The notes: generated by a model from the sequence alone, not told the origin. A DNA stretch of 64,000 nucleotides from Candidatus Multivoradales bacterium (GCA_965223855.1 CBDCXM010000009.1:2400001-2464000); one strand, 5' to 3'; positions 31,296 to 64,000 are shown, numbered from the stretch's first letter. Numbers and translations: made by a program.

Positions 31296-33746
31296 TCAGG
31301 GGATCGTGTTGCTCCAGACGCTGGTGTCGCCCGACTCGAAGCCGTCGGCGAAGATCTCGGTGTCACCGAGTGCCGCGACCTCCCAGAAACCGCGCCCGTG
31401 AGTCGCGATCTTGAGAGTGTTGCCGGAGGAGCGCGCCATCCCGAAGACGGCGACCACCGGCAGGCCCGTGCCGTAGGGGGTCCAACTGGCGCCGGCGTCG
31501 GTCGAGACGTAGACGCCGATGTCGGTGCCGGCGTAGATCGTGTCCGTGTCGTCGGGTTCGATCAGCACTACGTTGACCGGCACCTGGGGCAACCCCCCCG
31601 AAGCATCGGTCCAGATCGGCGGGCCGCCGTCGAGGTTCTCGGTCTTCCAGACGCTGGAGACGCCGAACGCCGACAGCGAGAGGAAGGCGGTGTTCGAGTC
31701 GGTCGGGTCGATCGCCACCCGCGCCACCGGCACGTCGGGGATGGTGTTCGACGGGTCGAGGTTGGTGAGTGTCGACGATCCGGTCGTCGTGCCCCAGACG
31801 CCACCGTTGGTCTGTCCGACCACTCTCACGTCATCGTCCTGTGGAGCGATCCCGATCGCGGTGATGGCGACTCCGCTGGTGATCGGGTTCTGGCTGACGA
31901 CGGTGTGGTTGACGCCCAGATTGTCGGAGCGGTAGAGCCGGTCCGAGGCGTAGTAGATCGTGTTCGGGTTGCCGGGGCCGCGCTCGAGCGGCGCGTAGAA
32001 GCGGATCGTGCCGTTGCAGGTGATGCCGTTCGTCGTGCCACCGCCCTGGCAGCCACGGAACGCCCAGCCGCCGTCGGTCGCCTGAGCGACGTTGCCGACC
32101 GTGCCGTATCCCTGGAGGGTCGTGGCGTTGAAGTAGGTGTGGTACATCCGCACGTTGGTGGTGTCCGGAGCGTTCTGATCGACCACGGTGTAGCCGCCGT
32201 CGCCGAAGTCCGCGCGGAACCAGCTCTCGTCGGGGCGATAGAAGTTGGTGCCGTTGTCCTGCGTCCCGCCGATCGCGAAGTGAGGATCGGTCGGGTGAGT
32301 GTCGATGTCCATGAACTGGGTGGCGGTGAACTGGCTGTTATTGAGGCTCGTCCAGTTGTTGCCGCCGTCGTCCGAACGGTAGATGCCGCCGTCGGTGCCG
32401 AGGTAGAGCCGGCTGAGATCGGACGGCGCGACGGCGATGGCGTGGGTGTCGACGTGGACGCCGGCGTTGCTCTCGGTGAACGACGTGCCGCCGTTGGTCG
32501 AGAAGGCGAAGACGACCGCGGGGGCGCCGCCGAGATAGACGTTGTCGGCATTCGTCGGATCGACCGCGATCGCGATGTCGTAGAAGCACTGGGGCGTGCA
32601 GAAGTTGTTGTCGATCCGCTGTGTCCAGGTGGCGCCGCCGTCGGTCGAGCGCAGCACCCGCCCGCCGCCGTTGCCGGTGGCGGCGTAGAAGGTGGCGTCG
32701 GGACCGGCGGTGTGCTGCACCGCGAACTCGGCTGTGCGGTCGCTCGTCCCGCCGCTGAAGACCTCGACCTGGGTGAAGGTCGGGCTGGGGGAGAGCGCGT
32801 TCGTCGAATGGTAGATGCCGGGATCTACCGAGACGGTGTTGGCGACGAGGATGTCGGGATCGAGCGGGTCGAGCGCGATGTCCCGCACGCTGGTGTCGGC
32901 ATCACTCGCCAGCCCGGTCAGCTTGGTGAAGGTCGGGGCGCCGGAGGTGGCGTTGGTGGAGCGGTAGATACCGCGGGAGGGCAGCGGCCCCGAAGTGGCG
33001 ACGATTCCGCCGACTCCCGACGTGGTGGCGACGAAGATCGTGCCCGGGTCGGTCGGGTGGACGAGGATCTTGCTGATCCCGCGTCCGGTAAAGACGTCGC
33101 TGGCACCGCCGTCCTGGTTGAAGGGACCCGAGATGACCGGGGAGTTGGTGTTGGCGGAGTCGATGCGGTAGACGCCGACGCCGAAGAAGCTGTCCGCCGA
33201 GAAATTGTGCTCACCCGTGCCGACGTAGACGGTGCTGGGGTCGGACGGTGCGATGGCAATGGCACCGATGGCGAGCGACGCTTCGCTGTCGAAGAGGCGC
33301 GTCCAGTTGGTACCGCCGTCGGTCGACTTGTAGAGGCCGCCCTGAGCGGTGCCGACGTACACGAGATCTTCGTCGCTCGGATCGACGGCGATCGAGATCG
33401 TCCGCCCGGAGGCGGTCGTCGTCGGCGGTTGGGAGACCTGTGCATTGGGGATCGGGTCCGGGCCGAGTTCGGTCCAGGTCGCTCCGAATGCGAGCGGCCG
33501 CGGCAGATCGAGCGCCGCTTTGAGCTGCAGCACGGCGTTCGGCCGGGCGAAGCGGTCGAAGGCGCGGAACTCGTGGATGCCGCGTCGCATCGCGATGTCC
33601 TCCGCCCGCTCGGTCAGAAACGCCTCCTTGTCGAGGCCGGTGACGGAGGAGTGCGGGACTTTCGACGATTGGGCTGAAGAGGTTCCGGCGAGCACCGAGA
33701 ACCCCAGAACGGAGACGAGAGCGAGAAGGGCGAGACAACGTTTCAT
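31296..33746 (-). CDS. Secreted BNR/Asp-box (Vps10/GH74-like) double beta-propeller protein with IFADGFE tail
   Basis: Signal peptide; repeated SxDGGxxW boxes; GGTQDNGT; ATHGRGFW; ends IFADGFESGDTSVWSNTIP. Confidence 0.88.
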   Translation of the reverse strand: MKRCLALLALVSVLGFSVLAGTSSAQSSKVPHSSVTGLDKEAFLTERAEDIAMRRGIHEFRAFDRFARPNAVLQLKAALDLPRPLAFGATWTELGPDPIPNAQVSQPPTTTASGRTISIAVDPSDEDLVYVGTAQGGLYKSTDGGTNWTRLFDSEASLAIGAIAIAPSDPSTVYVGTGEHNFSADSFFGVGVYRIDSANTNSPVISGPFNQDGGASDVFTGRGISKILVHPTDPGTIFVATTSGVGGIVATSGPLPSRGIYRSTNATSGAPTFTKLTGLASDADTSVRDIALDPLDPDILVANTVSVDPGIYHSTNALSPSPTFTQVEVFSGGTSDRTAEFAVQHTAGPDATFYAATGNGGGRVLRSTDGGATWTQRIDNNFCTPQCFYDIAIAVDPTNADNVYLGGAPAVVFAFSTNGGTSFTESNAGVHVDTHAIAVAPSDLSRLYLGTDGGIYRSDDGGNNWTSLNNSQFTATQFMDIDTHPTDPHFAIGGTQDNGTNFYRPDESWFRADFGDGGYTVVDQNAPDTTNVRMYHTYFNATTLQGYGTVGNVAQATDGGWAFRGCQGGGTTNGITCNGTIRFYAPLERGPGNPNTIYYASDRLYRSDNLGVNHTVVSQNPITSGVAITAIGIAPQDDDVRVVGQTNGGVWGTTTGSSTLTNLDPSNTIPDVPVARVAIDPTDSNTAFLSLSAFGVSSVWKTENLDGGPPIWTDASGGLPQVPVNVVLIEPDDTDTIYAGTDIGVYVSTDAGASWTPYGTGLPVVAVFGMARSSGNTLKIATHGRGFWEVAALGDTEIFADGFESGDTSVWSNTIP
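31311..31355 (-). repeat. C-terminal tag copy 1: IFADGFESGDTSVWS
   Basis: Direct translation; shared with four unrelated genes. Confidence 0.9.
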
Positions 33747-33900
33747 GACGGCTTCTCCTGTGGTGGAGAGGGTTGCGTGGAGCCCCCGGGCGGGGGCGCT
33801 GACAGCGGGTGGGCTCGGGCTACGCGCTTATGCGAGTGTCCGCCTCCCTCGTAGCCATGTCAAGGGAGCGGTCGCAGCGGGCTCCGAGCTCCAAGCCCGG

Positions 33901-35724
33901 TCATCGTTCGTCAGCCCGCCGCGTCCGCGTGTTGGAGTCGGTCCTCCCGTCCTCGTAGAGGCCGGTCACGCCCGTGACGGCTCCCGACTCGTCGGTCTCG
34001 AAACGCAGCCGGAAGAAGTCGGCGCTCCGCAGGACGAAGGTGTCGGGTGCGAGGGCGAAGAGCTCGGCGTAGTCCTCCGGTCGTGTGGCATCGCGGCCGT
34101 AGAAGAGGCGGCCGTCTCTGAGTTCCACCCGGCGGACTTCGTACTCGCCGGCGAACCTCTCGAGTCGCGCCGGGTCGACCTCGACGGGCCGATGGAGTGC
34201 ACGCAGCCACGCATGGAACCAATCGAGCTCACCCTCGCGCTCGCCCGATCCGAGCGCCGCCTCCAGGCTGCGGAGGGCCGCTTCGCCGCCGAAATGATCG
34301 AGAGAGAACCGCACTTCCTCCCGGATCGCTTCGATCGATTCGGGGAAGAGCTCCCGTCGCCACGCGAAGACCTCCAGCGCCTCCTGTGGCGACCGCTCCC
34401 GAGCGACGATGGTCGCGGCCCAGCGGAAGGACTCCTCGTCCTCCAGGCCTTCGAGAGCCCCCGAATCTCCCACCTCGCGCCAGTACTTGCGGCCGGCCTC
34501 GACCCCTGCGGCGGCGAGGGTATTGAGCCACTGCTGCCAGGGAGCATCCCAGGCGCGGTAGCCGAGGTAGTCGAACGGCGACGACCGATCTCCGGTCAGA
34601 AGGGCAACGACGTCTGCCGCGATGCCCTCGAGCCGCTGGCTGTTGCCCATCAGGACGACCGCGACGCGAGGCTCGAGGAAGGCGATCGAGTAGTTGGCGC
34701 TGCCGACGTCGTTGCCGGTATGGAAGATGGCGGGACCGAACGGAGTTTCGACGTACCCCCATCCCAGGGTCCAGCCGAGCCCGGTCGCTTCGTGCTCCGA
34801 CGTCGTCTCGACAGCGAGGGGGCCGAACATCCGACGATGGCGCACCTGGACCTGGCGGGACACCAGGCCTCGCCGGGCAGTGTCCGACAGTCCCTCGCCC
34901 GTCAGGACCGCGCGGAGGAACCGTGCGTAGTCGACGGCCGTCGTCTGTAGCGATCCCGCGGCCTGCGGTTCGTCGCGACGTTCCCGTCGGAGCGGTCGCC
35001 CCGCGAGGTCGTGATCTTCGGCGTAGTCGGTTTCGAACCGCTCCTGCCAGACCATGCTCGACCGCTTCATGCCGAGGGGCGCGAAGACCTCCTCCTGGGC
35101 AAGCTCCTCGAAGCCCTTGCCGGTGTGCTCTTCGATCGCCAGCTGCAGGAAGGCGAAGCCCTCACCCGAGTAGCTGTGGCGCTCTCCCGGCTCGTAGAGA
35201 AAGCTCAGCCGGTCTTCAGGCGTGAACCAGCGCCAGTTCGGCCAGCCGGTGGTGTGCGTCAGGACGTGGCGGGCGGTGAGCGCCCGATGCCGCTCGTCGC
35301 CCTCGAGATCGGTGTAGAAATCGTAGGTCGGCAGCGAGGCAGGCAGAAGTTCGGCCAGCGGGCGGTCGAGGTCGAGCCTTCCCTGATCGACGAGCCTCAT
35401 GGCGAGGTACGCGGTGATCGTCTTGCTGAACGAGAGCCCGGCGAACGACGTCGCCTCGGTGAGCGGACGGTGGTCCCTCACGTCGCGGACGCCGTAGTTC
35501 TCCTGGAGGACGAGCTCGCCGTCGTGGAGGACGGCGATCGCCATGCCGGGCAAGCGGACGGCTTCCATCCAACCCGCGATCCGGGTCTCGATCTCCGCGG
35601 CCGAGACCGTCGAGCCGTCGAGCCGGACGAGGTCGGGCTCGTCTTCGGCGTCGACCGGCCGGGCTGGAAGAGAAACGGTGAGAAGGACGATTGCGATTCC
35701 GCGCCACCAGGGTCGGGCTGCCAT
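33901..35724 (-). CDS. Secreted serine hydrolase (beta-lactamase family) with C-terminal helical and beta extension
   Basis: Signal peptide; SxxK in GLSFSK, LTHTTG, SYSGEG, FHTG. Confidence 0.88.
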   Translation of the reverse strand: MAARPWWRGIAIVLLTVSLPARPVDAEDEPDLVRLDGSTVSAAEIETRIAGWMEAVRLPGMAIAVLHDGELVLQENYGVRDVRDHRPLTEATSFAGLSFSKTITAYLAMRLVDQGRLDLDRPLAELLPASLPTYDFYTDLEGDERHRALTARHVLTHTTGWPNWRWFTPEDRLSFLYEPGERHSYSGEGFAFLQLAIEEHTGKGFEELAQEEVFAPLGMKRSSMVWQERFETDYAEDHDLAGRPLRRERRDEPQAAGSLQTTAVDYARFLRAVLTGEGLSDTARRGLVSRQVQVRHRRMFGPLAVETTSEHEATGLGWTLGWGYVETPFGPAIFHTGNDVGSANYSIAFLEPRVAVVLMGNSQRLEGIAADVVALLTGDRSSPFDYLGYRAWDAPWQQWLNTLAAAGVEAGRKYWREVGDSGALEGLEDEESFRWAATIVARERSPQEALEVFAWRRELFPESIEAIREEVRFSLDHFGGEAALRSLEAALGSGEREGELDWFHAWLRALHRPVEVDPARLERFAGEYEVRRVELRDGRLFYGRDATRPEDYAELFALAPDTFVLRSADFFRLRFETDESGAVTGVTGLYEDGRTDSNTRTRRADER

Positions 35725-35829
35725 GGCCCGAGGATATCCAAGCGCCTCCCCGAACGCGGTCTCCTGGAATCCGGGCGACGCGGCCGGCGTTGCGAACCTC
35801 GAGGTCTCTCCATACCCTGGGAGGTGATG

Positions 35830-37371
35830 ATGCGTCGGCGACTCTTCGTGGTGTCCGCTCTTGTGCTTGCCGTCTCGTTCACTGTGGCGGGTGCCTTCGG
35901 CCCGTCCCCGACGGGCCCGCACGACGCCCTGGTCGAGGGACTCGAGAAGCCGGATCCTGAGGCCTATTGGCTACCTCGCCACAGGGCGGCTCTGCTCGAG
36001 GATCCACTGCTGTTCCCGCGTCGGGCGTCGGCGACGGACGCCGCCGGGGCACCGCTGCGGTTCCGCAACAAGAGGCGTGTCAGCACCGACCTGCTCGAGC
36101 CGCCCTCCGCGGTACTGCCGACCGCCCAGGCGGAGGCGCAGACGGAGCCGTATGTCGCCGTCAATCCCGAGAATCCCCTCCACCTGGTGGCCGGTTGGCA
36201 GGAGGATCGCTTCTCGGACGGCGGTGCCCGTGCACTGGGCGTCGCGGTTTCGCTCGACGGCGGTCGGCGCTGGACCGATGCGCTCGTACCCGGGTTGACG
36301 ATCGCCTCCGGCGGCACCTGGTCGCGGGCGTCGGATCCGTGGCCTGCTTTCGGACCGGGAGGCGTCGTCTACTTCAACAGCCTGCTCTTCGAGCCCGGCC
36401 TTCCCAACGACAACGCGATCGCGGTCAGCATCTCCGAGGACGGCGGTTTCACCTGGGGGCCGCCGGTGGAGGTGGTCAGGGATCCTCTCGACTTTCACGA
36501 CAAGAACTCGATGGTGGTCGACACGGTCTCGACCGGTCCCCACCGGGGCAACGCGTATGTCGCCTGGGACATCAACCTGTTCCGCGGCGGCCGGTACGTC
36601 GCTCAGCGGCTGGTGGTGGCGCGATCGACGGACGGCGGCCGCAGCTGGAGCCGGCCGCGGAGGGTGGCGCAGGGGCCGACCAACATCGGCGTCGTCCTGC
36701 GCGTCGGCTCCGACGGCACGGTCTACGCCGTCTGGGCGGCGGCGTTGCCGGGTGCGCCGACTCTGTCGCTGCGTTTCGCCAGCAGCACCAACGGCGGCCG
36801 GCGCTTCAGCAGCCCGCGCAAGATCGCCGACATGCTGCCGATCGGCGTCGAAGGGTGGCGATCCGGAGCGATCCTCCCTTCGCTGGCGATCGATCCGCTG
36901 ACCCAAGACCTCTACGTTGCCTGGGCCGATGCCCGGTTCACCGGTACCGACCAGGCGACGGTCGTGGTGTCGCGCGACGGCGGTGCCAGCTGGACGGCGC
37001 CGATGCGGGTGAGCCGCGGTCCCGACGCCAGTCCGGCGATGACGGTCAGCGTGACGACCAACGGTGCGGGCGAAGCTCTGGTCGGCTACTACACGATTCG
37101 CAACGTCGTCGGGCGCCCGACCTTCGCCGACTACTTCGTCACCCGGTCGCGCAACCGCGGAGAATCGTTCGGGCCGCGCGTGCGGGTGAGCCGACCGTCG
37201 TTCGATGCCGGTCAGGCGGCGAGGGCCGCCCAGGGGGCCTTCTTCCTCGGTGACTACGTCGGCCTCACCGGTACGGACGACGGTTTCGTCGCGGTCTTCA
37301 CGGCTGCGTTCGCGCCCTCCCGGCTGGGACCGGGGCGGCAGGCCGACGTGTTCGCCGTGGTTTCGCGCTGA
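35830..37371 (+). CDS. Secreted sialidase-family (BNR repeat) protein
   Basis: GGAGGT SD; signal peptide; multiple SxDGGxxW Asp-boxes; SDPW, HDKN and GDY motifs. Confidence 0.85.
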   Translation: MRRRLFVVSALVLAVSFTVAGAFGPSPTGPHDALVEGLEKPDPEAYWLPRHRAALLEDPLLFPRRASATDAAGAPLRFRNKRRVSTDLLEPPSAVLPTAQAEAQTEPYVAVNPENPLHLVAGWQEDRFSDGGARALGVAVSLDGGRRWTDALVPGLTIASGGTWSRASDPWPAFGPGGVVYFNSLLFEPGLPNDNAIAVSISEDGGFTWGPPVEVVRDPLDFHDKNSMVVDTVSTGPHRGNAYVAWDINLFRGGRYVAQRLVVARSTDGGRSWSRPRRVAQGPTNIGVVLRVGSDGTVYAVWAAALPGAPTLSLRFASSTNGGRRFSSPRKIADMLPIGVEGWRSGAILPSLAIDPLTQDLYVAWADARFTGTDQATVVVSRDGGASWTAPMRVSRGPDASPAMTVSVTTNGAGEALVGYYTIRNVVGRPTFADYFVTRSRNRGESFGPRVRVSRPSFDAGQAARAAQGAFFLGDYVGLTGTDDGFVAVFTAAFAPSRLGPGRQADVFAVVSR

Positions 37372-37556
37372 CTGCCGGCCCGACGAGGGGGCGCGCTCGC
37401 CCGGGCCCGGTGTCGGTCCGCACTCAGGGGGCCGGCCTGCGATATCTTGCGATCGTGAATCTTCGGCAGTGGGGGAGCGGAAGGTCTCGCGCGACGGTGG
37501 CCCAGCGGTGACGGGTACGCGCGCGACACCGATCGAGAGCTCTCGAGGAGGCTGAG

Positions 37557-40460: not shown

Positions 40461-40489
40461 GAGAGTCGAGTCGGCGAGTGGAGGTCGGA

Positions 40490-40933: not shown

Positions 40934-43047
40934 GACGAGTGACCGCGAGCGCTCTCGCCCTGATCTTCGTCGGGGCGATGGGCGCGAGCTCTCCGGCCGC
41001 CGCCAAGCGGGTGGTCGCGATCGGCGACGTCCATGGCAGCTTCGATGAGTTCACCGCCATCCTCCGTGCCGCCGAGCTGATCGACGAGGAGGGGCGCTGG
41101 AGTGGTGGTGAGTCGATCTTCGTGCAGACGGGGGATCTGCTTGACCGGGGGGTCGGAGTGCGGGCGGTGATGGATCTGCTGATGGCCCTCGAACCTCAGG
41201 CTGCCGCGGCCGGGGGGCGGATCGTCGGGCTGCTGGGCAATCACGAGGTGATGAACATGGTGGGCGTGCGGCGCGATGTCGCGATGCAGGGACAGTCGCC
41301 GGGTCCCGTCTACGCGACGTTCGCCGATAGCGACTCGAAGCGGCGACAACGGGAGGCGGCCGACGCCTGGAAGCGTTGGCAGGCCCGCTTCCCCGACTGC
41401 GCTCCGGGCAGCAGGAGGGAGTGGCTCGCCGCCCACCCGGAGGGGTACGTCGAGTACGCGACCGCCTTCACGGCGGAGGGGGCCTACGGCAGGTGGCTGC
41501 GTGAGCGCTCCGCGGTCGCCAGGGTCGGCGGGTCGATCTTCGCCCACGGTGGTCTCAGCCCTGAGCTGGCCGCGAGTGGAAAGGGCGGTTCCATCGAGGC
41601 GATCAACGATGCGGTGGCCGCCGAGCTGGCGCGCTGGGACGAGGATTTCGCCTTTCTGGTGGAGGCCGGCGTGGCGCTCGAGTTCAGCGAGTTGACCGAG
41701 GTCTCGTGCGCGCTCGAGCAGGTGCTCGCTCCCTCCGCGGCGGATCCCGGCAGCGGTGCCGATCGGGAGAGGTTCGCCGAGATCGACTCCCGATTCCCGT
41801 CTCCCTCCGGTTGGCTGTCGTTCTCCGGGGACGGTCCCCTCTGGTTTCGCGGCTATGCGAAGTGGGGAGACGAGAAGAGCGGTAGCGTCGATCGGCTGCT
41901 CGCCGCCTACGGGGCCGAGCGATTGGTCGCTGGGCACACGCCGCAGCCGGGGACCGTCGCCTCGCGCTTCGGAGGGAAGGTGTTTCTGATCGACACCGCT
42001 GTCGTCTACGGGGCGGAGGCGAAGGGGCGTCCGGCCGCCCTGGAGCTGATCGATGGCCGGGCATCGGCGATCTATCTCGACGGCACGGTGAGGCTCGACA
42101 TCGACGAGAGCACGCCTGACGCGGGATCGCCGACCGTCGAAGCCGTGCCGTTCCGCTGGTTGGGCGAAGAGGGAGAGGCGTTGCCGTTCGACGATGCCGA
42201 GGCCGTGCGGCAGTTCCTTTCGACTGCCGAGATCGTCTCGATCAGGGCACTTCCCGACGGCGTGACCAAACCGCGGCGGATGGCGATGGAGTCCGGAGGA
42301 GTGCGCGCCAGGGCGGTCTTCCGCTACGTCCACATCGAATCGCTGCGCAAGCGACTGTCGTCCGGCGAGTTCGTCATGTACTTCCGCGACAGCTACGTCA
42401 ACGAGGTGGCCGCCTACGAGCTGGCAGCGCTTTTCGGACTCGACAACATCCCGCCCGTCGTGCTGCGCGAGGTGAGCGGCCAGGAGGGATCGGTGCAGGC
42501 CTGGCTGGAACACTCGATGCGCGAGACCGACCGACGCCAAAGGGGACTCAAACCTCCGAATCAGCGCTACTACAACAACCAGTTCTACCAGATGCGGGTG
42601 TTCGACAACCTGATCCACAACATCGACCGCAACCAGGGCAACTTCCTGTTCGACGAGAACTGGAAGCTGTGGATGATCGATCACACGAGAGCCTTCGCGC
42701 GAGAGAAGAAGAAGCTCTGGGCGCCGGACGAGGTGATCGGTCTCACCCCGGAACTGTGGCGACGGTTGCAGGAAGTCAAGGACGAGGAGATCGTCGCGGC
42801 CCTCGATGCCTACCTCCCCGGACCCGAGCTGCGAGCCCTGCTCGCAAGACGGGAGCTGCTCGTCGAACTCATCCGTCGGAGAATCGCCGAGAGGGGCGAG
42901 GGACGTGTGCTCTTCGATCTCGATCCGGCGAAGCCGGAGGTCGTGGTCACGATCGAGGAACCGCCGCCGTTGCCGGAGGCGGATGTCGAGACCGGAGCCG
43001 AGGCTCAGGCGGGGGGCGAAGCGGAGGACAGTGAGGACGTGAACTAG
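40930..43047 (+). CDS. Secreted Shelph-like metallophosphoesterase fused to an atypical (Fam20C/PI4K-like) kinase domain
   Basis: Signal peptide ending PAAA; GDVHG, GDLLDRG, GNHE, HGG, GHT, IDT; C-terminal NEVAAYEL, GSVQAW, FDNLIHNIDRNQGN, IDHTRAF. Confidence 0.85.
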   Translation: MRRVTASALALIFVGAMGASSPAAAKRVVAIGDVHGSFDEFTAILRAAELIDEEGRWSGGESIFVQTGDLLDRGVGVRAVMDLLMALEPQAAAAGGRIVGLLGNHEVMNMVGVRRDVAMQGQSPGPVYATFADSDSKRRQREAADAWKRWQARFPDCAPGSRREWLAAHPEGYVEYATAFTAEGAYGRWLRERSAVARVGGSIFAHGGLSPELAASGKGGSIEAINDAVAAELARWDEDFAFLVEAGVALEFSELTEVSCALEQVLAPSAADPGSGADRERFAEIDSRFPSPSGWLSFSGDGPLWFRGYAKWGDEKSGSVDRLLAAYGAERLVAGHTPQPGTVASRFGGKVFLIDTAVVYGAEAKGRPAALELIDGRASAIYLDGTVRLDIDESTPDAGSPTVEAVPFRWLGEEGEALPFDDAEAVRQFLSTAEIVSIRALPDGVTKPRRMAMESGGVRARAVFRYVHIESLRKRLSSGEFVMYFRDSYVNEVAAYELAALFGLDNIPPVVLREVSGQEGSVQAWLEHSMRETDRRQRGLKPPNQRYYNNQFYQMRVFDNLIHNIDRNQGNFLFDENWKLWMIDHTRAFAREKKKLWAPDEVIGLTPELWRRLQEVKDEEIVAALDAYLPGPELRALLARRELLVELIRRRIAERGEGRVLFDLDPAKPEVVVTIEEPPPLPEADVETGAEAQAGGEAEDSEDVN

Positions 43048-44336
43048 CGGTCGGGCCGGCGGGACCGTCGGGGCAGCGCCTCGGCGCCGACCACGACCGG
43101 CCAGGCCGACACGGTTCCGGTCTCGAAGCCGTCGTCGAAGATGGCGCTGATCGAGAAGACTGCGAGCGTGTTGGGGAAGAACCCGGTCACGTAGAGGTGT
43201 CGGGCATCCGGGGAGCTGCGGACATCCGCCGGTGACGAGATTCCCGTGACACCGTCGACCCCCTCGCAGGTCAGCTTCGCCAGCTCGAGGCGTCCTGCCG
43301 CGGCGTCGATGCGAACCGCAGCGATGGCCTGATGAATACCCAGCGTGGCGAAGAGAGTCCTGTCGCTCGTGAAGCCCAGCTTGGCTGCTGGATCGGCCGC
43401 GTTGGGGGTACAGCCTCCCTGGGAGGGCGGATTGGGCAACTCGGCGAGCAGCTTCAGATCGCCGGTGGTCGGGTCGCGTGCGAGGAGAGTCAGCCAGTCG
43501 AATCCTTCGAGGAACGTCTGACTCGCGGCCACCACGAAGTGGCCGTCCGGACTGACGGCTACATCGGTGACCAGGTCGAGCCAGCCCGAGCTTGCGACCG
43601 CGTCTCCGAACGCCAGCGAGCCATCGGCCCCGCGCGCGAAGTGAATCACGCTGTCGTCGAGTACCGAAGCGACGTAGAGCGAACTGCCGTCCGGGGAGAG
43701 GTTCAGCCCGAGCGGAGCAGAGAGCCCGGTCACCCCGTCGACGCCGTCGACGACCGCCTCGAGGTACGTCAGCCTTCCCGAGGCCGAGCGTTCGAAGACC
43801 GCCACGGCGGAATCGCTGAGACCGGCCACGTAGAGGTGCCGGTCGTCAGGCGAGAGCACCAGATCCCGAGCACCGTCGAGTCCGTCGACGCCCCCGATCC
43901 CGTCGATCAGGGTCTGGTCGAGTTGGAGCAGCCCGGTCGACGGGTCGCGCTGCCACACACTCACCTGGTCCGACTGTGCCGAGGCGGCGTAGATTTGCAG
44001 GCCGTCGGAGGACACGGCGAGAGCGGCGACCAGCGCCAACGACGTGTCGAACGCCCGCTGGACGAAGGTGAGCAGCCCGGTCGACGGGTCCCGCTCGAAC
44101 ACCACCAGGGAGCGGCCGCTGGTGGCGGCGACGACAACGTGCCGTCCGTCGGGAGTGACCGCGACCTCGATCGGCTGCTGCAGGCCGGTGATTCCCGACG
44201 TTCCGTCCTCGAGGACCTGCAGGAAGCGGAGTGCGGCAGAGCCGCTCGCCGGAGCCGCCGCAGCGAGCAGGAAGCCGAGCAGCAGCGCAGGGACGAGGCG
44301 GCGGAGACCGTATCGGGCACGAGTGGGCGGGAGCAT
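43044..44336 (-). CDS. Secreted lactonase-family 7-bladed beta-propeller protein with IFDDGFE tail
   Basis: Signal peptide; repeats SPDxxHLYV...VFxRDPxTGxL and DGVDGVxGL. Confidence 0.85.
   Translation of the reverse strand: MLPPTRARYGLRRLVPALLLGFLLAAAAPASGSAALRFLQVLEDGTSGITGLQQPIEVAVTPDGRHVVVAATSGRSLVVFERDPSTGLLTFVQRAFDTSLALVAALAVSSDGLQIYAASAQSDQVSVWQRDPSTGLLQLDQTLIDGIGGVDGLDGARDLVLSPDDRHLYVAGLSDSAVAVFERSASGRLTYLEAVVDGVDGVTGLSAPLGLNLSPDGSSLYVASVLDDSVIHFARGADGSLAFGDAVASSGWLDLVTDVAVSPDGHFVVAASQTFLEGFDWLTLLARDPTTGDLKLLAELPNPPSQGGCTPNAADPAAKLGFTSDRTLFATLGIHQAIAAVRIDAAAGRLELAKLTCEGVDGVTGISSPADVRSSPDARHLYVTGFFPNTLAVFSISAIFDDGFETGTVSAWPVVVGAEALPRRSRRPDR
43101..43142 (-). repeat. C-terminal tag copy 2: IFDDGFETGTVSAW
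   Basis: Direct translation; followed by an 18-aa extension. Confidence 0.85.
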
Positions 44337-47688: not shown

Positions 47689-47758
47689 AGACGGCATGCC
47701 CTCGGACGGCCCGGGCCGTTCGGGGAGCCAGGTTCCAGCCCGACAGGAGGTCGAAGAT

Positions 47759-49327: not shown

Positions 49328-49334
49328 CCGAGCG

Positions 49335-50129
49335 CTACCAGCTCTCTTTGACGGCCACCCAGACGCCGTCGAGGAGCTCGAGCTTGATCTCGCCGGTCAC
49401 GGGCTCTCCCTCCATCGTCGCGCTGACGTCGAGGTAGGCGACGTCGCCGACCCGTCTGCCGCCCGTCACTTCGACGGCGGTCGGAGCCATCAGTCGCAGG
49501 AACTCGAGGTTCTCCTGCTGCTCCTCCTCGGGCATCGAACGGAACATCTCCGCCTGCTCGGCGGGGAGCAGAGAGAGGATGAGGTCGGTGTCGTCACCTG
49601 CGAGCGCCTCCGACCAGGCCAGGTAGGCGGCCCCTGCCTCTCCACCGCCGGCCGGCAGCACCTCGCCGGGGAGCTCTGAAGGGAGGGTGGCCGCGAAGTC
49701 GAAGTGGAACGAGACCGCCGAGTCGAAGACCTCGAAGTCGGCGCTCACGGTGCCGGCGTACTCCTCGGGGCCGAAGGTGGTGAAGGCGACCTCGAAGGTC
49801 TGGCCGGAGGAGTTGCCGCTCTGGAAGCAGTAGTTGGTCATCTGCGTCTCGCCGGCGTCATCGACGGTGAACTGAACGGAGCGGTTGCCGAACTCTCCCG
49901 GGCACATGTCGTCGACTTCCAGATAGGGGATTTCCTGCTCGGAGAGGGTGACGAGGACGACCGTCTGTCCCTCCTCCCAGGGGTGCTCCTGTTCGTGGAC
50001 CGTCACGTGGGGCATGGCGATCGACTCGCCGTCCGCCTCCACCGAGCCGGTGGCCTCACCGGCGGAAAGGCCGTCCGGGCAGGCGAATGCAAGCAGCGTG
50101 GCGATGGAGAGTTGCAGGACTCTTTGCAT
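49335..50129 (-). CDS. Exported acidic hypothetical protein
   Basis: AAGGAG SD; signal peptide; C-terminal NTF2/DUF4878-like pattern (AYLAW..AL..D...G.I.L....GVW). Confidence 0.75.
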   Translation of the reverse strand: MQRVLQLSIATLLAFACPDGLSAGEATGSVEADGESIAMPHVTVHEQEHPWEEGQTVVLVTLSEQEIPYLEVDDMCPGEFGNRSVQFTVDDAGETQMTNYCFQSGNSSGQTFEVAFTTFGPEEYAGTVSADFEVFDSAVSFHFDFAATLPSELPGEVLPAGGGEAGAAYLAWSEALAGDDTDLILSLLPAEQAEMFRSMPEEEQQENLEFLRLMAPTAVEVTGGRRVGDVAYLDVSATMEGEPVTGEIKLELLDGVWVAVKESW

Positions 50130-50246
50130 CGAGGTACTCCTTCTCGTTGACCGTCTGAGTACGGGACGGCGAGTGTAGCCTGCCGGTGGACGGATGCCGC
50201 AGCCCTGCTACGCTGAGAGCCGGACCTCTCGGCGAAGGAGCGACTC

Positions 50247-51158
50247 ATGAAGACTCTCGAACGATGGTTGCCGGCGAGCGTGCCGCCGACTTCACTTCTG
50301 GTCCTGCTGATGGTGCCGGTGATGGCGACCTGCTCGGCGCTCGTCTGCCAGCCGCCGCGCGAGCTGTCGCCCTCGGAGCTGCGGCTGCTCTACGACTTCG
50401 AGGCGTCGGCTGCGCCGACGATTCTGTGCGAAGGTGATCCCCTTCGCGTTCGGTGGGAGATGAGCGCGACTGAGTTATGGGGTGACGGCCGCGACCTCTG
50501 CCCGACGCTCGAGGACTGCCCCGGCAGCCCGGACTACACGCCGCTCGCCAGCGTCGAGATCACCAGTTCTCCCGCCGGGCTGCTGGCCGCCGATCCCGTG
50601 CCCGCGGACGAGCTCGCCGGGGAGCGATCGGTGACCCCGACCGCATCGGGCGTCGTCAGGGCCGCGGCGACGCTGACCGATCGCAGGCGGGCGAGCACCG
50701 ACGCCAGGGACCTTCCCTTCGAGGTTCTCGACGCCGGCGTCGTCGACTACCGCCAGGTGCTCGTCGGGACCGGCGTCTGCCTCGAGGGCTCGCCACGTAG
50801 GCCCGGCTGGCTGGCGCCGTCGATCGATCGCGACACGCTCCTCGGCGAGAGTGTCGATCCGGTGTCTCTGTGCAACCTGACGCCGTTCGAGCAGATCCGC
50901 CTCCAGGTGCAATGGGACTCGGGGCCCGACACGGAGGGGATGGTGGCGCGCGGCGACTGCTATCCGTTCCTCGACGTGAGCGGCCTCGATCGGAGAGTGA
51001 GACGCGTCGTGCCCACCGTGGTCGATCCGACCGCTCTCGTGGGGACCGACTGCCCACCGCCTGCCGACGGCACGGTGGTCGGTGAGCCGCCGCGCCCCGA
51101 CCGGCCGCCGAGGGACTACCTGCTCGAGATCGAAGTCCGCTGCCGGATCGACCCCTAG
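50247..51158 (+). CDS. Exported Cys-containing hypothetical protein (possible lipoprotein)
   Basis: AAGGAG SD; hydrophobic N-terminal segment ending MATC; scattered cysteines. Confidence 0.65.
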   Translation: MKTLERWLPASVPPTSLLVLLMVPVMATCSALVCQPPRELSPSELRLLYDFEASAAPTILCEGDPLRVRWEMSATELWGDGRDLCPTLEDCPGSPDYTPLASVEITSSPAGLLAADPVPADELAGERSVTPTASGVVRAAATLTDRRRASTDARDLPFEVLDAGVVDYRQVLVGTGVCLEGSPRRPGWLAPSIDRDTLLGESVDPVSLCNLTPFEQIRLQVQWDSGPDTEGMVARGDCYPFLDVSGLDRRVRRVVPTVVDPTALVGTDCPPPADGTVVGEPPRPDRPPRDYLLEIEVRCRIDP

Positions 51159-51171
51159 CCTTCTCTGCGAC

Positions 51172-52656
51172 ATGGCACAACGCTGCAGGTGGGGTGCTGG
51201 TGCCGGCGGCGGTTGGGGGGCTCTTGCTGGCGCGTTGCTGTGCTGCCTGATCGCTGCTGCGTCGACAGCCGGCCGGTCGTCCGCCGACCGGTCGCCCGCC
51301 GGAGAGGGGCGCCCCAACTTCGTCCTCCTCATGACCGACGATCAGGCGTGGGACGCGGTGGGGCTGCTCGATCCCCTGGTGGACACACCGAACCTGGATC
51401 TCCTGGCCGCCTCCGGCGCACGGTTCGAGAATGCCTTCGTCTCGACCTCGATCTGCCCGGCGAGCCGGGCTTCGATCCTCACGGGGCTCTACTTTCCGGC
51501 CCACGGCTACACCTTCGACCAGCCTCCGCTGACGACTGCCGATCTCGCCGTGACGTGGCCGGCGCTGCTGCGAGCGAGTGGTTACCGGGTGGCGCTCATC
51601 GGCAAGAACGGCCTCGGCCTCGACGACCCGGCGCTCGACCAGCTCTTCGACGAATGGGAGACCTATCCTCGCGAGTACTTCCTCGACGACGGAGGTCGGG
51701 AGGTCCATCTCACCGATCTCCTCGCCGAGAAGGCGAGCGGGTTTGTCGCCCGCCAGGATGCCGATCAGCCGTTCGCACTCATCGTCTGGTTCCACGCCCC
51801 GCACGCTGTCGGAGGCTTTGCTGCCGAGCCGTTCGTGCCGCCGCGGCGCTACGAATCGCTCTACGACGGGATCGTCTTTCCTCGTCGGCCCGGTTCGAGC
51901 CCGGAGCAGTGGTTCGACCGCCCCGGCTTCTTCGACCGGGGGCTCAACCGCCAGCGGCGCGACCTGTGGTGGAGCGACGGGCGGTACCAGCACAACTCGC
52001 GCCGCTACCACGCCATGGTCCGTGGTGTCGACGATGCGGTCGGTGCCGTGATGAGCTCTCTGGCGAAGCACGGTCTCGCGGGCGACACGGTCATGATCTT
52101 CACCTCGGACAACGGCTTCTACCGCGGTGAGCGCCTCTTCGGCGGCAAATGGCTGGGGCACGACCCATCGAGCCGGGTACCCCTGTACGTCCGGCTCGCA
52201 CCTTCGAAGCCCCGCGTCTTCGACGAGCTCGTAGTCAACGTCGATCTGGCGCCGACGATCCTCGAACTGGCGGGCGAGGCCGCTCCGAGTGCCATGCAGG
52301 GGAGGAGCCTCGTGCCGCTGATGGTCGACGAGGAGGCGTCGTGGCGCGAGGACCTCTTCCTCGAACACAGCTACTCGCCGGCCGGGATGCCCGGGATTCC
52401 GCGCTTCTTCGGTGTCAGAAGTGAGCTGTGGAAGTACCTCTACTTCCCCGACCACGGGTACGAGGAGCTCTTCGACCTCCGCTCCGATCCTGCCGAGCTC
52501 CGCGACCTCGCGGGCGATCCGGACTTCGAGGAGGTTCGCCGGGAACTGCGCAGACGGGCGGAAGAGCTGCGCTTCGAACTCGGCGGTGACATCTTCCAGG
52601 ACGGATTCGAGGCGGGGGATACCTCGAGCTGGACAACGGTCGTACCAAGGCCGTGA
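51172..52656 (+). CDS. Secreted type I sulfatase with IFQDGFE tail
   Basis: RPNFVLLMTDD, ICPASRASILTG, GK, APH, FTSDNG, GKW, VDLAPTIL, ELFDL..DP.E. Confidence 0.92.
   Translation: MAQRCRWGAGAGGGWGALAGALLCCLIAAASTAGRSSADRSPAGEGRPNFVLLMTDDQAWDAVGLLDPLVDTPNLDLLAASGARFENAFVSTSICPASRASILTGLYFPAHGYTFDQPPLTTADLAVTWPALLRASGYRVALIGKNGLGLDDPALDQLFDEWETYPREYFLDDGGREVHLTDLLAEKASGFVARQDADQPFALIVWFHAPHAVGGFAAEPFVPPRRYESLYDGIVFPRRPGSSPEQWFDRPGFFDRGLNRQRRDLWWSDGRYQHNSRRYHAMVRGVDDAVGAVMSSLAKHGLAGDTVMIFTSDNGFYRGERLFGGKWLGHDPSSRVPLYVRLAPSKPRVFDELVVNVDLAPTILELAGEAAPSAMQGRSLVPLMVDEEASWREDLFLEHSYSPAGMPGIPRFFGVRSELWKYLYFPDHGYEELFDLRSDPAELRDLAGDPDFEEVRRELRRRAEELRFELGGDIFQDGFEAGDTSSWTTVVPRP
52591..52656 (+). repeat. 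C-terminal tag copy 3: IFQDGFEAGDTSSWTTVVPRP
   Basis: Direct translation. Confidence 0.9.
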
Positions 52657-52672
52657 AAGGGCGGCTGGCTGT

Positions 52673-53830
52673 TCAGGGAGTGGCGTCGGCGGGGAGGGCC
52701 TCGGCTGGGGCTGTGGAGTCTCGGGCCGGGGCGGCACCGACCGAGACCGGCATCGAGATCCGCCGCGTGCCGCAAACGCTCGTCACCTCGACCGCGACCT
52801 CTCCGCCCTCGCCGTCCCAGTCGACGACGATCGACCGCATACCCTGTCCGGACACCAGTCTCGCGCCGGCAGGGAGCTCCCAGGAAAACGTACTCGCGGC
52901 GAAGGCGTTGCCAACCCGATAGACGACGCCGGTTTCCCCGGGGACGACCTCCCGGACTCCGTCGAGATGGGGGGAGTTGCCGTCCTGTACGCGAACGAAG
53001 TCGACCTCCAGCGTCTGGGGGAACGAGGTCGTAGCGTCCGGCGTTCCCGGCCAGTGTCCCCCAACGGCCACATTGAGGAGCAGGTGGAAACGCTCGTCGA
53101 AGGGCCACGGGTGCTCACCGAGGTCCGATGGAGTTCTGGTCGAGTAGAGGATGTCGTCGACCAGCCAGCGGATCACGCCGGGCTCGCGTTCGACGGCGAA
53201 GCGGTGGAAATCGTCGGCGAAGCTTCGTTCACCCGGAAGGGAGAAGCTGGTTCCGGTGAAGCGATGGTCGGGATGAGGAGTACCGAAGTGGAGGGTGCCG
53301 TGCACGGTCGACGGTTCCGAGCCGATGTTCTCCATGATGTCGATCTCTCCGCTCCGCGGCCAGCCGCCGAAAACCTCGTCCGTGGGTAGCATCCAGAAGG
53401 CGGGCCAGAGGCCCTGACCGCTCGTCATCCGAATCCGCGCTTCGACCCGGCCGAAGGTGAAGTCCCCGATCCCGCGAGTACGCAGTCGAGCCGAGGTGTA
53501 GTCGGAGCCGTGGTAGGGCTCGCTCTTCGCGATGATCCGCAGGCTGCCGCCCTCGACTTCGGCGTTCTCCGAACGGTAGTACTGGAGTTCGCCGTTGCCC
53601 CACCCGGCAGGGACGCCGTAGTCGGCTCCCGTCCCGATCATGAATTCCCACTTCGATGTGTCGACGGTCGTACCTTCGAACTCGTCGGCCCAGACGATCG
53701 AGGGGCACTGCCGGACAGCGCTCTGATCAATGGAGGCGGCCGTCGAGACCAGGGTCAAGATCGACACGACTACGACGAGCAGAGGTAGCCGTCGGTCGAG
53801 GGGGCGGTAGCGCGGAGGTTGGCAAGGCAC
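52673..53830 (-). CDS. GH16 glycoside hydrolase (laminarinase-like) with C-terminal PKD-like domain
   Basis: WADEF, WGNGELQYY, YTSARL, WPAFW, catalytic EIDIME, LLNVAVGG; start uncertain. Confidence 0.9.
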   Translation of the reverse strand: MPCQPPRYRPLDRRLPLLVVVVSILTLVSTAASIDQSAVRQCPSIVWADEFEGTTVDTSKWEFMIGTGADYGVPAGWGNGELQYYRSENAEVEGGSLRIIAKSEPYHGSDYTSARLRTRGIGDFTFGRVEARIRMTSGQGLWPAFWMLPTDEVFGGWPRSGEIDIMENIGSEPSTVHGTLHFGTPHPDHRFTGTSFSLPGERSFADDFHRFAVEREPGVIRWLVDDILYSTRTPSDLGEHPWPFDERFHLLLNVAVGGHWPGTPDATTSFPQTLEVDFVRVQDGNSPHLDGVREVVPGETGVVYRVGNAFAASTFSWELPAGARLVSGQGMRSIVVDWDGEGGEVAVEVTSVCGTRRISMPVSVGAAPARDSTAPAEALPADATP

Positions 53831-54045
53831 GGTTCGTCGCCGGGACGTCTGGACAGCTTGCGGTGGCGGATCCGGATCGTTGGAGGGCCTCGCCCCGCGG
53901 TGTCCGGAGCATCCTAGCCCCGTTCCGGAGCGGGCTCGCTTCAGGAGCGCATGCGGCTCGCTCGACCGGTGCCGGCCGGGTCTTCTCGCGGCCCTACGTG
54001 AAGGAATCGATTGTCTTCCGTCGCCGGGTCCGAGAGCCTTTCCGC

Positions 54046-54861
54046 ATGCCACGCTTCCTTCATCTCACGACCGCCTGGGCCGTGGTGACGCTTCTCTTCA
54101 CCGGGCCAGGGCGACTCTTGGCTTCGGGCGCGGGGCCGAGCCTCCTGGTCTTCACCCGGACGGAGGGCTTCGACCATCCGTCGATCGTGGACGGCGTCAC
54201 GATGTTCGTGGAGTTGGCGGCGGCCCACGGTTTCACGGTTTCGGTGACCGACGAGACCGGTGAGTTCACCGACACGGGACTCGGCGCCTACGACGTCGTC
54301 GTCTGGCTTTCGACGACGGGGGACGTTCTCGACCCTCCCGAGGAGGCGGCGTTTCGCGCCTTCATCGAGCAGGGAGGCGGCTATCTGGGGATTCATGCGG
54401 CGGCCGATTGCGAGTACGGGTGGCCCTGGTACGGCGAGGAGATCCTCGGCAACGGAGCGTGGTTCGACTCGCATCCCGCGATTCAGGAGGCTCGCCTGCT
54501 GCTCGAGGGGGACGGCTCGCCGGCCCCGGGGAGTTGGGAGGGGGACACGCTCTTCACCGACGAGTGGTACAACTTCCGAGCCAATCCTCGAGACGTGGTC
54601 CAGGTGGTGCAGACGCTCGATGAGAGTTCCTACTCGGGGGGCAACATGGGCCCCGATCATCCGATCGCCTGGGCGCGCACCGTCCTGCTCGGGAGGGTCT
54701 TCTACACCGGCCTGGGCCATCGCTCGGAGACCTTCGCCGATCCGCGGTTCCGGGCGCAGATCGTCGATGCCGTCGGCTGGCTCAGCGGCGCAGGGTCGAG
54801 CATCTTCTCCGACGGCTTTGAAAGCGGTGACACCTCGGCCTGGGGCGCGACGACTCCCTGA
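54046..54861 (+). CDS. Secreted ThuA-like domain protein with IFSDGFE tail
   Basis: LVFTRTEGFDHPSI, STTGDVL, GGYLGIHAAAD, DEWYNF, DHPIAW, FYTGLGH. Confidence 0.9.
   Translation: MPRFLHLTTAWAVVTLLFTGPGRLLASGAGPSLLVFTRTEGFDHPSIVDGVTMFVELAAAHGFTVSVTDETGEFTDTGLGAYDVVVWLSTTGDVLDPPEEAAFRAFIEQGGGYLGIHAAADCEYGWPWYGEEILGNGAWFDSHPAIQEARLLLEGDGSPAPGSWEGDTLFTDEWYNFRANPRDVVQVVQTLDESSYSGGNMGPDHPIAWARTVLLGRVFYTGLGHRSETFADPRFRAQIVDAVGWLSGAGSSIFSDGFESGDTSAWGATTP
54802..54861 (+). repeat. C-terminal tag copy 4: IFSDGFESGDTSAWGATTP
   Basis: Direct translation. Confidence 0.9.
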
Positions 54862-54930
54862 ACGGGTACACGGGTGCCGGGCCGCCCGTGCCTGATGCCC
54901 TGCTATCTTCGGGCGGTTCGATACACAGGG

Positions 54931-56190
54931 ATGATCTCGATGAAGCCGACAGGAAGACTCCTCGTTTCACTCCTCGTCGCGGCGACCGCTGCCGCCGCCT
55001 CCGAGCCCGCTCCGAGCCTCTTCACGCCGGTGGAAGGCCCCCTGGATCCGTCGTTGGCGAGCGTGGAGAGTCGACGAATCGCCGTCGAAGCAGCACTGCT
55101 GACGCCTGATCTCGACGAGGTGAGACTCGATCTGCCGGGTGTGGGGCCGGTCTTCGCCCGCCTGACGTCGTTCGAGGATCGGGGTGCCGGAGGGGTGACC
55201 TGGAGGGGCGTGCTGGCAGGAGAGGACGGAGGAGGGGTCACCCTCACCTCCCGACGCGGCTTCGTCGCGGGACTGGTGACCGGGCCGGTGGGAGTGTGGG
55301 AGATCCGAACGCTCGCCGACGGAGGGCAGGCGGTGGATCGGATCGACCAGGCGAGGTACCCCGTCTGTGGAACGCCGCAGCCGGCCCAGCCGGTTCCTTT
55401 TCTCGGCGACGTCGATCCCTGTCCTGCTCCGGTCGATCCGGTCGGCCAGGTCGATGTCCTGAGCCTCTACACGCCGCAGGCCCGCGACGCTTCGGGAGGC
55501 GTGCCGCAGATCGAGGCGCTGATCCAGGCGGCGGTCGACAACACCAACACCGCATTCCTCAACTCGGAGATGCCGATCCGCTTCCGTCTCGTCGGCACCG
55601 CGCTCGCCGATCACGACGACAGCGGCAACATCAGTACCGACCTCAACTGGCTGCGGAACGATTCGGAGGCGGCGGCTCTGAGGGACAGCGTTCGAGCGGA
55701 CCTGGTGTCGCTCATCACCCAGGACGGGGGCGGCTTCTGCGGCCTCGGCCAGCTGCCGCTCACCTGGGGGGCGGGGGGCAATCCGAACTCCGTCTTCCAG
55801 GTGACGGCGAGGGGTTGCGCCGTGGGGAATCTCTCCTACGCCCATGAGCACGGTCACAACATGGGGCTCGAGCACAACCCGCAGAACGCCAACCCCCCCG
55901 GGGCGGGCAGCTACCCCTACCGTTTCGGCCACTACGTCAACGGCTCCTACCGGACGGTGATGTCCTACTCGAGCCAGTGCACCAGCGGCTGTACGAGGGT
56001 GACGCAGTGGTCGAACCCCGAAGTCGTCTTCCTCGGCGAGCCGACCGGGCTCGAGGACCAGCGCGACAACCGGCGGGCGTCCGGGCTGACCGACGGTTGT
56101 GTGACCGACTACCGGCTCTCCGACCCGGCGATCTTCTCCGACGGCTTCGAGTCGGGCGACACCTCGGCCTGGTCGACTTCGCTGCCCTGA
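54931..56190 (+). CDS. Secreted reprolysin-like (M12B) zinc metallopeptidase with IFSDGFE tail
   Basis: Signal peptide, prodomain ending in a CG switch-like motif, HEHGHNMGLEH, Met-turn RTVMSY, WSNP. Confidence 0.9.
   Translation: MISMKPTGRLLVSLLVAATAAAASEPAPSLFTPVEGPLDPSLASVESRRIAVEAALLTPDLDEVRLDLPGVGPVFARLTSFEDRGAGGVTWRGVLAGEDGGGVTLTSRRGFVAGLVTGPVGVWEIRTLADGGQAVDRIDQARYPVCGTPQPAQPVPFLGDVDPCPAPVDPVGQVDVLSLYTPQARDASGGVPQIEALIQAAVDNTNTAFLNSEMPIRFRLVGTALADHDDSGNISTDLNWLRNDSEAAALRDSVRADLVSLITQDGGGFCGLGQLPLTWGAGGNPNSVFQVTARGCAVGNLSYAHEHGHNMGLEHNPQNANPPGAGSYPYRFGHYVNGSYRTVMSYSSQCTSGCTRVTQWSNPEVVFLGEPTGLEDQRDNRRASGLTDGCVTDYRLSDPAIFSDGFESGDTSAWSTSLP
56131..56190 (+). repeat. C-terminal tag copy 5: IFSDGFESGDTSAWSTSLP
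   Basis: Direct translation. Confidence 0.9.
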
Positions 56191-63999: not shown

Positions 64000-64000
64000 C

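Follow-up and report, generated by a model that had tools for sequence, protein, structure and literature searches.

Several described systems make use of terminal segments that are common to otherwise unrelated exported proteins. In tripartite signals such as LPXTG/sortase, PEP-CTERM/exosortase, GlyGly-CTERM/rhombosortase and MYXO-CTERM, a conserved tail occupies the extreme C-terminus of proteins containing signal peptides, and its patchy distribution among lineages coincides with the occurrence of one dedicated gene. The C-terminal domains of the type IX secretion system (T9SS) are β-rich labels of diverse proteins secreted by diderm bacteria, which constitute complete sandwiches of about 70–100 residues that are described by Pfam and TIGRFAM models. 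Cohesin-dockerin pairs consist of two complete domains that fold independently. The dockerin measures about 70 residues, contains duplicated loops for calcium binding and forms a terminal module of many unrelated secreted enzymes, which it attaches non-covalently to the cohesin as their common partner. Chaperone-usher pili are assembled by donor-strand complementation, and in the man-made pairs SpyTag/SpyCatcher, where binding is covalent, and strand 11 of split green fluorescent protein, a short peptide equals one strand of a β-fold and completes a truncated partner. In archaeal cannulae of the TasA superfamily, a strand-deficient β-sheet is reported to be completed non-covalently and outside the cytoplasm by the strand of another polypeptide (bioRxiv 10.1101/2024.12.30.630787). 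Here, we describe a peptide of 19 residues (the tag) near the C-terminus of five exported proteins encoded in a stretch of 64,000 nucleotides from Candidatus Multivoradales bacterium (GCA_965223855.1 CBDCXM010000009.1:2400001-2464000), which is referred to as the window, together with a small secreted protein (the body) from the same genome that is homologous to a complete domain minus its first 19 residues. We consider it probable, though far from assured, that tag and body are the two parts of a split lectin-like domain, which would dock by strand complementation.

A first-pass annotation of the window had described one motif at the end of five unrelated secreted proteins. Translation of all five open reading frames (ORFs) confirmed the motif, with the sequence IFxDGFE[STA]G[DT][TV]SxW, and its coordinates, and Pfam assigned the cores of the proteins to a BNR/Sortilin propeller, a Lactonase propeller, a Sulfatase with SGSH_C, a ThuA domain and a Reprolysin (M12B). 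In four cases the chain ends with a proline located 5–7 residues past the tryptophan, as had been stated, the exception being the lactonase-type propeller with 18 residues past the tryptophan and a terminal arginine. The Pfam matches of the ThuA protein and the sulfatase attain the end of their profiles upstream of the tag, and in an AlphaFold2 (AF2) model of the ThuA protein, calculated from 58 homologues, a core with a predicted local distance difference test score (pLDDT) above 90 is followed by about 20 terminal residues that are unpacked, contain no strand and show pLDDT values of 53–57. By these profile boundaries and this model, the tag is predicted to be located outside the folds of its cargo. 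When used alone as queries, the five tails (30–35 residues) retrieved no family in either NCBIfam or Pfam at E-values up to 10.

A six-frame motif scan of the genome holding the window (4.52 Mb, 68% G+C, nine contigs) detected 85 copies, 78 of which begin exactly 19 residues ahead of a stop codon, while five carry longer tails, with 21, 28, 31, 32 and 48 residues up to the stop codon, and two are found directly behind an N-terminal signal peptide. The short consensus is [IVL]FxDGFESGDTSAWSxT[VIL]P, with counts in the 78 canonical copies of [I50 V15 L8]-F77-x-D78-G78-F78-E78-S71-G78-D75-T70-S62-A63-W78-S65-x-T59-[V46 I14 L13]-P65. The reversed DNA pattern has no match in any of 41 related genomes compared to 84 forward matches in the window genome, and the frequency of the tag is therefore far above chance. 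At position 8, 38 serine codons are of the TCN and 33 of the AGY type, and the identity between copies amounts to 62% at the third codon position compared to 78% at the first two. In view of the mixed serine codons and the lower similarity of third positions, we rejected an origin of the tags as DNA repeats; this codon usage indicates that the copies are maintained at the level of the protein.

The carriers are diverse. In a crude set of 3122 genes, the 74 tagged genes used for the assignment of families and neighbours fall into 57 BLAST families. Pfam was applied to alternate members of the 78 tagged ORFs located outside the window (38 in total) and identified a family in 25 and none in 13, the detected families comprising FG-GAP propellers, PKD/Big_5 with cytochrome-c peroxidase, Trypsin_2, DUF2961, DUF11, M28, DUF1501 and BNR, as well as β-helix, SBBP, CHRD, GH39/GH5, HZS_alpha, Reprolysin and GSDH. 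A crude signal-peptide test was positive for 74 of the 85 tagged ORFs and, within the gene set, for 68 of 73 tagged genes compared to 1225 of 2614 others, which should be taken as a rough contrast only since the heuristic accepts any alternative start and is too permissive.

The proposal that the tag is a sorting or anchoring label is thus borne out insofar as the motif is real, restricted to the C-terminal end in 83 of the 85 copies and present on unrelated exported proteins, whereas the two copies at the mature N-terminus depart from it. These belong to a β-helix protein, whose gene extends beyond the end of the window, and to a protein without Pfam family (G000:C9:748651-749562, + strand, where G000 denotes the window genome and C9 one of its contigs). 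In both, the tag is placed right after the signal peptide and precedes a Pro-rich or unstructured linker. We rejected the idea that it marks the start of an ordinary lectin domain in these proteins, since one carrier is a β-helix that has only the tag in common with a C-tagged β-helix protein, where 15 of 15 residues are identical. Since two mature proteins bear the tag at their N-terminus, recognition of a free C-terminus by a machine is disfavoured, and a peptide usable at either end would fit a docking segment better than a signal read in that way.

In this respect the tag also differs from the tripartite signals, despite its resemblance to them as a conserved tail of unrelated exported proteins: a membrane helix, a basic cluster and a processing enzyme are all absent. 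Instead of a hydrophobic stretch, five polar residues follow the tryptophan in 78 of the 85 copies, and no curated NCBIfam or TIGRFAM sorting model matches the tag tails. With 19 residues and no hydrophobic stretch, it lacks a transmembrane helix and is too short for a C-terminal domain of the T9SS, as already noted in the first-pass annotation; unlike such domains, it is described by no model and is unstructured in AF2, although a form of about 196 residues is found at the same position.

This longer form (the complete domain) occurs in tag-poor relatives, where the motif is often non-terminal and the 19 residues open a C-terminal domain that belongs either to GSDH-like proteins or to propeller-like proteins of a second, unrelated class. 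In an alignment of 11 complete domains, F6, G9 and W14 are invariant and E7 is nearly so, and these conserved residues of segment 1–19 are the same as the invariant F, E, G and W of the tags. AF2 predicts an all-β structure with a pLDDT of 95 and a predicted template modelling score (pTM) of 0.90, in which residues 2–4 and 16–18 form short strands. A Foldseek search with this model returned 476 matches in the PDB at E-values up to 0.001, with 2zzj being the best (E 5.5e-7, query template modelling score TMq 0.70), and the matches include the polysaccharide lyase families PL20, PL7 and PL14, of which the latter two are alginate lyases, and lectin-like domains. By its predicted structure, the complete domain is a concanavalin-A (ConA)-like lectin/glucanase jelly-roll. 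No Pfam family reached its threshold in the four complete domains that were scanned; CBM_4_9 (PF02018) matched one of the four with an E-value of 0.079 and 13.8 bits, compared to a cut-off of 25.9, and covered only residues 1–44. CBM_4_9 and other ConA-like modules of enzymes resemble the complete domain in their fold class and in an opening motif of the type GFE-x-G...W, whereas the module described here finds no Pfam model at threshold and is split between two genes.

Tandem complete domains, each with its own motif, are seen in two relatives (G036, C39:107063-108886; G037, C10:84515-85681) within ORFs that stay open for 1285–2292 residues, and one matched copy in a third genome (G026, C13:61478-62005) likewise resides in a long-open ORF. 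A distant member of the phylum with three tag hits (G193) encodes a small secreted protein in which a single chain contains the signal peptide and the motif as well as the body, and which looks like the unsplit version.

When the window genome was searched with the complete domain, 38 matches covered the first 15–79 residues of the query and ran past stop codons, thus representing tags, with one weak longer read-through among them, and one match covered residues 85–192. This last match provides a candidate partner, a secreted lectin-like body that misses exactly the tag segment. The body of the window genome (G000:C9:733685-734308) comprises 208 residues, contains a typical Sec signal peptide and is encoded about 1.67 Mb away from the window. 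In a comparison by hhalign of 15 bodies with 11 complete domains (probability 99.7%, E 3e-26), body columns 26–212 correspond to domain columns 20–196. Since the body begins at domain column 20, the mature protein is devoid of columns 1–19, which is the length of the tag. By this alignment, the acceptor is predicted to lack a strand of its own fold, as is characteristic of donor-strand complementation. A profile search against 5.8 billion public proteins identified 52 body clusters with lengths of 198–256 residues, none of them with a Pfam family; where names are given, they read hypothetical protein, and the named organisms belong to Thermoanaerobaculia or Acidobacteriota. The motif is found in none of the 52. 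In nearly all of them, the strand-2 consensus NT[LV]AV..AA..G.FGLEV begins immediately behind the signal peptide, with two being called without full N-terminus. Nothing significant for the body family was found in Pfam, NCBIfam or the sequences of the PDB.

Bodies vary at both ends. Most of those outside the genus of the window (P0010-P0056) terminate with FESFRTLAP, whereas the body of the window genome ends with YVATR, and in a subfamily (G039 L096, P0049) an N-terminal extension ahead of strand 2 contains the sequence CPDxDxDGxPGSIxGN, which looks like a calcium-binding loop.

For the prediction of a complex, the mature body (residues 25–208, alignment of 15 rows) was folded together with a 32-residue tail of the M12B peptidase (alignment of 40 rows). 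The interface score ipSAE (interaction prediction score from aligned errors) of 0.85 compares to 0.03 for the best of three controls, and the mark used for this score is attained by 116 of 157 solved complexes but only by 2 of 215 mismatched pairs. The runs agree on at least 89% of the contacts and the partner shows a pLDDT of at least 73. In the model, tag-chain residues 14–18 (the IFxDG strand) pair with residues 202–207 in the last strand of the body, the phenylalanine of the tag touches body residues 31, 41–43 and 202 and its tryptophan residues 56–58. Six of the nine most conserved body residues (V31, G39, L43, E65, D202 and R208) are located inside the predicted interface, which comprises 32 of 184 residues (hypergeometric p 0.001). 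The model, which places the tag in the vacant strand position, supports binding but is no proof of it.

The predicted arrangement is reminiscent of donor-strand fibres such as pili and cannulae, where a missing strand is supplied non-covalently outside the cytoplasm, which for tag and body is a prediction only. Whereas filaments arise in those systems from the head-to-tail assembly of like subunits, many unrelated enzymes would here converge with their terminal segments on one small monomeric acceptor with no sign of a polymer, and in contrast to TasA the fold matches are lectin and lyase jelly-rolls. As in cohesin-dockerin pairs, a short terminal module of many unrelated secreted enzymes would plug onto a common partner. 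However, the tag is with its 19 residues part of the fold of that partner and has no Pfam match, the partner is an incomplete jelly-roll likewise without Pfam match, and no scaffold with multiple cohesins was seen. From engineered split tags, the pair would differ by being natural, proteome-wide and non-covalent.

To count tags in the 41 related genomes, we used a DNA pattern for DGFExG[DN]xxxW. Hits are patchy, with 28–108 in 18 genomes including that of the window, 11–16 in three, 1–6 in six and none in 14. The presence of a body was assessed by combining a single-protein search, ORF inspection and profile searches. A standalone body was detected in 20 of 22 genomes with at least ten tag hits compared to one of 15 without hits, a contrast (Fisher test of 20/2 versus 1/14, p 3e-7) whose statistics are overstated, as the genomes are kin. 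Two of the eight genomes with 1–6 hits (G020 and G025) contain a standalone body, which in G020 is encoded directly after a tagged gene on the same strand; complete domains are found in G020 itself and in five other genomes of this low-count group, and a further genome (G250) shows only a weak partial match. One genome that is tag-free by pattern (G007) encodes a complete fused domain with a variant motif that the pattern misses. In a phylum-wide sample of 301 genomes, each at least 90% complete, 284 have no tag and tag-rich genomes are confined to the order of the window and to one member of another order in the same class (G194). Two expectations that were set beforehand both held: a body (E 3.4e-48) containing a signal peptide and strand 2 is encoded by a 223-residue ORF of G194, which has 70 tags, and no match was obtained in G174, a tag-free genome of the same family.

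In public data, a profile of the tail matched at least 8161 representative clusters at E-values up to 0.001. Among the best 150 of these, 97 contain a single copy at the very end and 13 contain several with the last at the end, while 8 have a single copy elsewhere and 32 have several of which none is at the end, representing tandem complete domains. In 11 loci from four other genomes, all 12 motif copies are located at most 25 residues from the stop. Three tags of G033 (L102, L106 and L109) are without the last mini-strand, two ending at the tryptophan and one four residues later, and the body of the same genome (L093) has an unusual N-terminal strand; a co-variation between the two would be possible, judged from this single case. 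Among 119 ThuA homologues, the full tag is located close to the end in 56, a shorter tail that stops shortly behind GFE is found in 32, the motif has a more internal position in 4, and 27 show none of these. Four other homologues listed, one of them named from Streptomyces, are fused to a complete ConA-like domain of the family PF06439. The 32 short tails (homologues P0111-P0174) consist of hydrophobic-F-x-[DNS]-GFE followed by 0–4 residues and the stop, with no Trp part, and may be the 'DxIFxxGFE' tail of other diderm proteomes that was mentioned in the first-pass annotation.

On these grounds, we propose that the tag corresponds to the first segment of a ConA-like jelly-roll in detached form, with two short strands and a loop that would provide phenylalanine and tryptophan as anchors. 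The domain would be split between genes, with about 80 exported proteins carrying the 19-residue segment only and one gene encoding the other approximately 184 residues. After cleavage of its signal peptide, the body would start exactly where the segment ends, and outside the cytoplasm the tag would insert into the vacant position beside the last strand of the body by non-covalent donor-strand complementation, so that a lectin-like module would be rebuilt on each cargo. As preferred purpose, this module may bind a glycan of the cell surface, the matrix or a substrate and in this way retain or target the enzymes. Whereas anatomy, homology, register, co-occurrence and the predicted complex can be read from the data directly, it is binding in the cell, its location and its purpose that we infer. 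More tentatively, and as a possibility rather than as our expectation, we consider docking of split proteins on a proteome-wide scale, where a secreted 'catcher' is completed in trans by the 19-residue tag of about 80 enzymes into a glycan-binding module that works only after export, and where the whole secretome would share one carbohydrate-binding body by which it is held on the surface, the matrix or the substrate.

Besides the kinship of the genomes, several observations weigh against the split lectin-like domain. The main exception is G035, a 97% complete genome with 90 tags, in which neither a search with the single protein nor two body profiles detected a standalone body and the profile of the complete domain matched tags and one fused domain only. 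The same searches found no standalone body in G004 (11 tags, 77% complete), and G039 contains no tags but yields a weakly scoring body-like match (E 0.0036), whose N-terminal extension is unusual. The products of about 80 cargo genes would all depend on a single body gene, and the body is without lipobox, membrane helix or known anchor. Finally, the two halves of one fold may pass as a predicted complex by their likeness to intact jelly-rolls, so that the pass indicates their fit and not a meeting in the cell.

Among other explanations, the one that survives best, although we regard it as unlikely, is that tag and body bind for export, with the body as a chaperone or pilot of the periplasm that would complete a common domain by which an outer-membrane secretion system recognises the cargo. 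The evidence for binding would be the same as for a lectin-like module, and a body with a Sec signal peptide only and no anchor would fit a soluble periplasmic factor. However, genes of secretion systems were not detected beside the body gene, where the recurrent neighbours are Sulfatase-family genes, and the tandem fused complete domains of giant proteins look more like an adhesin/lectin module than like a handle for export. Slightly less probable still would be a sorting or processing signal for a translocon, protease or transpeptidase of the envelope, to which the body is unrelated and with which it co-occurs by ancestry. The strong C-terminal restriction of the tag and the many tags of G035 in the absence of a detectable body are in line with such a signal, whereas the two N-terminal copies, one matching a C-terminal copy in all 15 residues, the lack of a membrane helix, a basic tail and any matching NCBIfam or Pfam sorting model, and the start of the body at exactly domain column 20, which it leaves unexplained, oppose it. 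Moreover, among three genes on each side of the 74 tagged genes we found no single-copy or recurrent candidate for a machine. Of the recognition by a translocon, a transpeptidase or a surface scaffold that the first-pass annotation had inferred, strand addition to a scaffold is the part that is retained in the reading favoured here, while we encountered no pointer to a translocon or transpeptidase.

We consider it improbable that the tag is an autonomous aromatic and acidic hairpin that binds calcium, glycans or other tags and requires no protein partner. Its richness in Asp/Glu and Phe/Trp and the shorter forms of some lineages, which extend to the tryptophan in G033 and end after GFE in many relatives of the ThuA protein, would be compatible with this idea, but the tail is unstructured in the model of the monomer and the conserved residues of the tag pack into the jelly-roll core of the complete domain. 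That tags are functionless remnants of truncated C-terminal lectin domains, as might be suspected from relatives with a complete domain at the same place on homologous cargo such as GSDH-like proteins, is hardly credible in light of six positions that are invariant in 78 copies despite the turnover of synonymous codons, the common end point of all 78 and the presence of the segment in 8161 representative clusters.

The split lectin-like domain thus remains the preferred reading, and the features of the window to which it refers are listed in Table 1.

Table 1. Tagged genes and tags of the window, with positions counted from its first nucleotide.
Feature	Position	Strand	Basis or remark
BNR/Sortilin-type propeller gene, exported, 816 residues, tagged	31296..33746	-	translation and Pfam
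Tag IFADGFESGDTSVWSNTIP of BNR/Sortilin-type propeller, 19 residues, stop directly after	31299..31355	-	canonical 19-to-stop class
Lactonase-type 7-bladed propeller gene, exported, 430 residues, tagged	43044..44336	-	translation and Pfam
Variant tag IFDDGFETGTVSAWPVVVG of lactonase-type propeller, followed by 13 more residues; among the 5 long-tail copies	43086..43142	-	
Sulfatase gene (Sulfatase and SGSH_C), exported	51172..52656	+	likely start 51172; longest ORF from 51082
Tag IFQDGFEAGDTSSWTTVVP of sulfatase, followed by Arg-Pro and stop	52591..52647	+	
ThuA-domain protein gene, exported, 271 residues	54046..54861	+	likely start 54046; longest ORF from 53656
Tag IFSDGFESGDTSAWGATTP of ThuA protein	54802..54858	+	
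M12B (reprolysin-like) metallopeptidase gene, exported	54931..56190	+	likely start 54931; longest ORF from 54874
Tag IFSDGFESGDTSAWSTSLP of M12B peptidase; tail used as partner chain in the complex prediction	56131..56187	+	
β-helix protein gene, 3' part (whole gene G000:C9:2463250-2464269)	63250..64000	-	tag at mature N-terminus, just beyond window end

The body gene is surrounded by three lipoprotein-like genes of the Sulfatase family, a family 2 glycosyltransferase (GT2) and two multi-pass membrane proteins without Pfam family, and among 13 body loci that were inspected, 7 have a Sulfatase-family neighbour, including those of the window genome and G194. The three Sulfatase-family (PF00884) genes near the body of the window genome (G000:C9:728028-737243) encode lipobox-like N-termini and a common LxALGYL at their C-termini. 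As judged by eye, they contain WTLP[AS][HM] in place of the Cys/Ser-x-Pro-x-Arg motif of sulfatases and may not be true sulfatases.

In the surroundings of tagged genes, two families were set aside as potential machinery. All six ORFs of a trypsin-like protease family, distributed over four loci (G000:C8:224816-226942, C8:408857-410785, C9:357273-358421 and C9:767186-769333), have a tagged gene no more than three genes away. At each of the four, a trypsin-like serine protease whose C-terminal region resembles a P-domain, and which at two of them was called as two ORFs, is found directly upstream of a tagged gene of about 445 residues, and the three of these partners that were scanned are all FG-GAP_2 propellers. 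The arrangement reads as a family-specific, paralogous two-gene operon and not as a sorting machine. A transposase-like family of 18 copies (e.g. C3:152543-153568 and C9:525703-526617), which we take to resemble the IS200/REP-associated tyrosine transposase type, has nine members within three genes of a tagged gene compared to a roughly estimated expectation of about 2.5. This family was taken as a sign of variable regions, in which the tagged genes may reside.

We found no description of the tag or of the docking of a split lectin in the literature. The docking principle is not known to be described for bacterial secretomes, and the pair is not seen to combine the defining features of donor-strand fibres, cohesin-dockerin pairs, tripartite signals or the T9SS. 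If tag and body bind, this would constitute a new organisation of secreted enzymes, where two genes each encode part of a domain that is reassembled extracellularly and where dozens of cargo proteins share a single acceptor, and the question of what reads the tail would turn into a question of binding between two components. It would also explain an orphan motif found in at least 8161 public protein clusters and offer a ready natural pair of peptide and protein for protein engineering. For the biology of uncultured Acidobacteriota, it would provide a handle on how these organisms hold hydrolases, peptidases and sulfatases near the cell.

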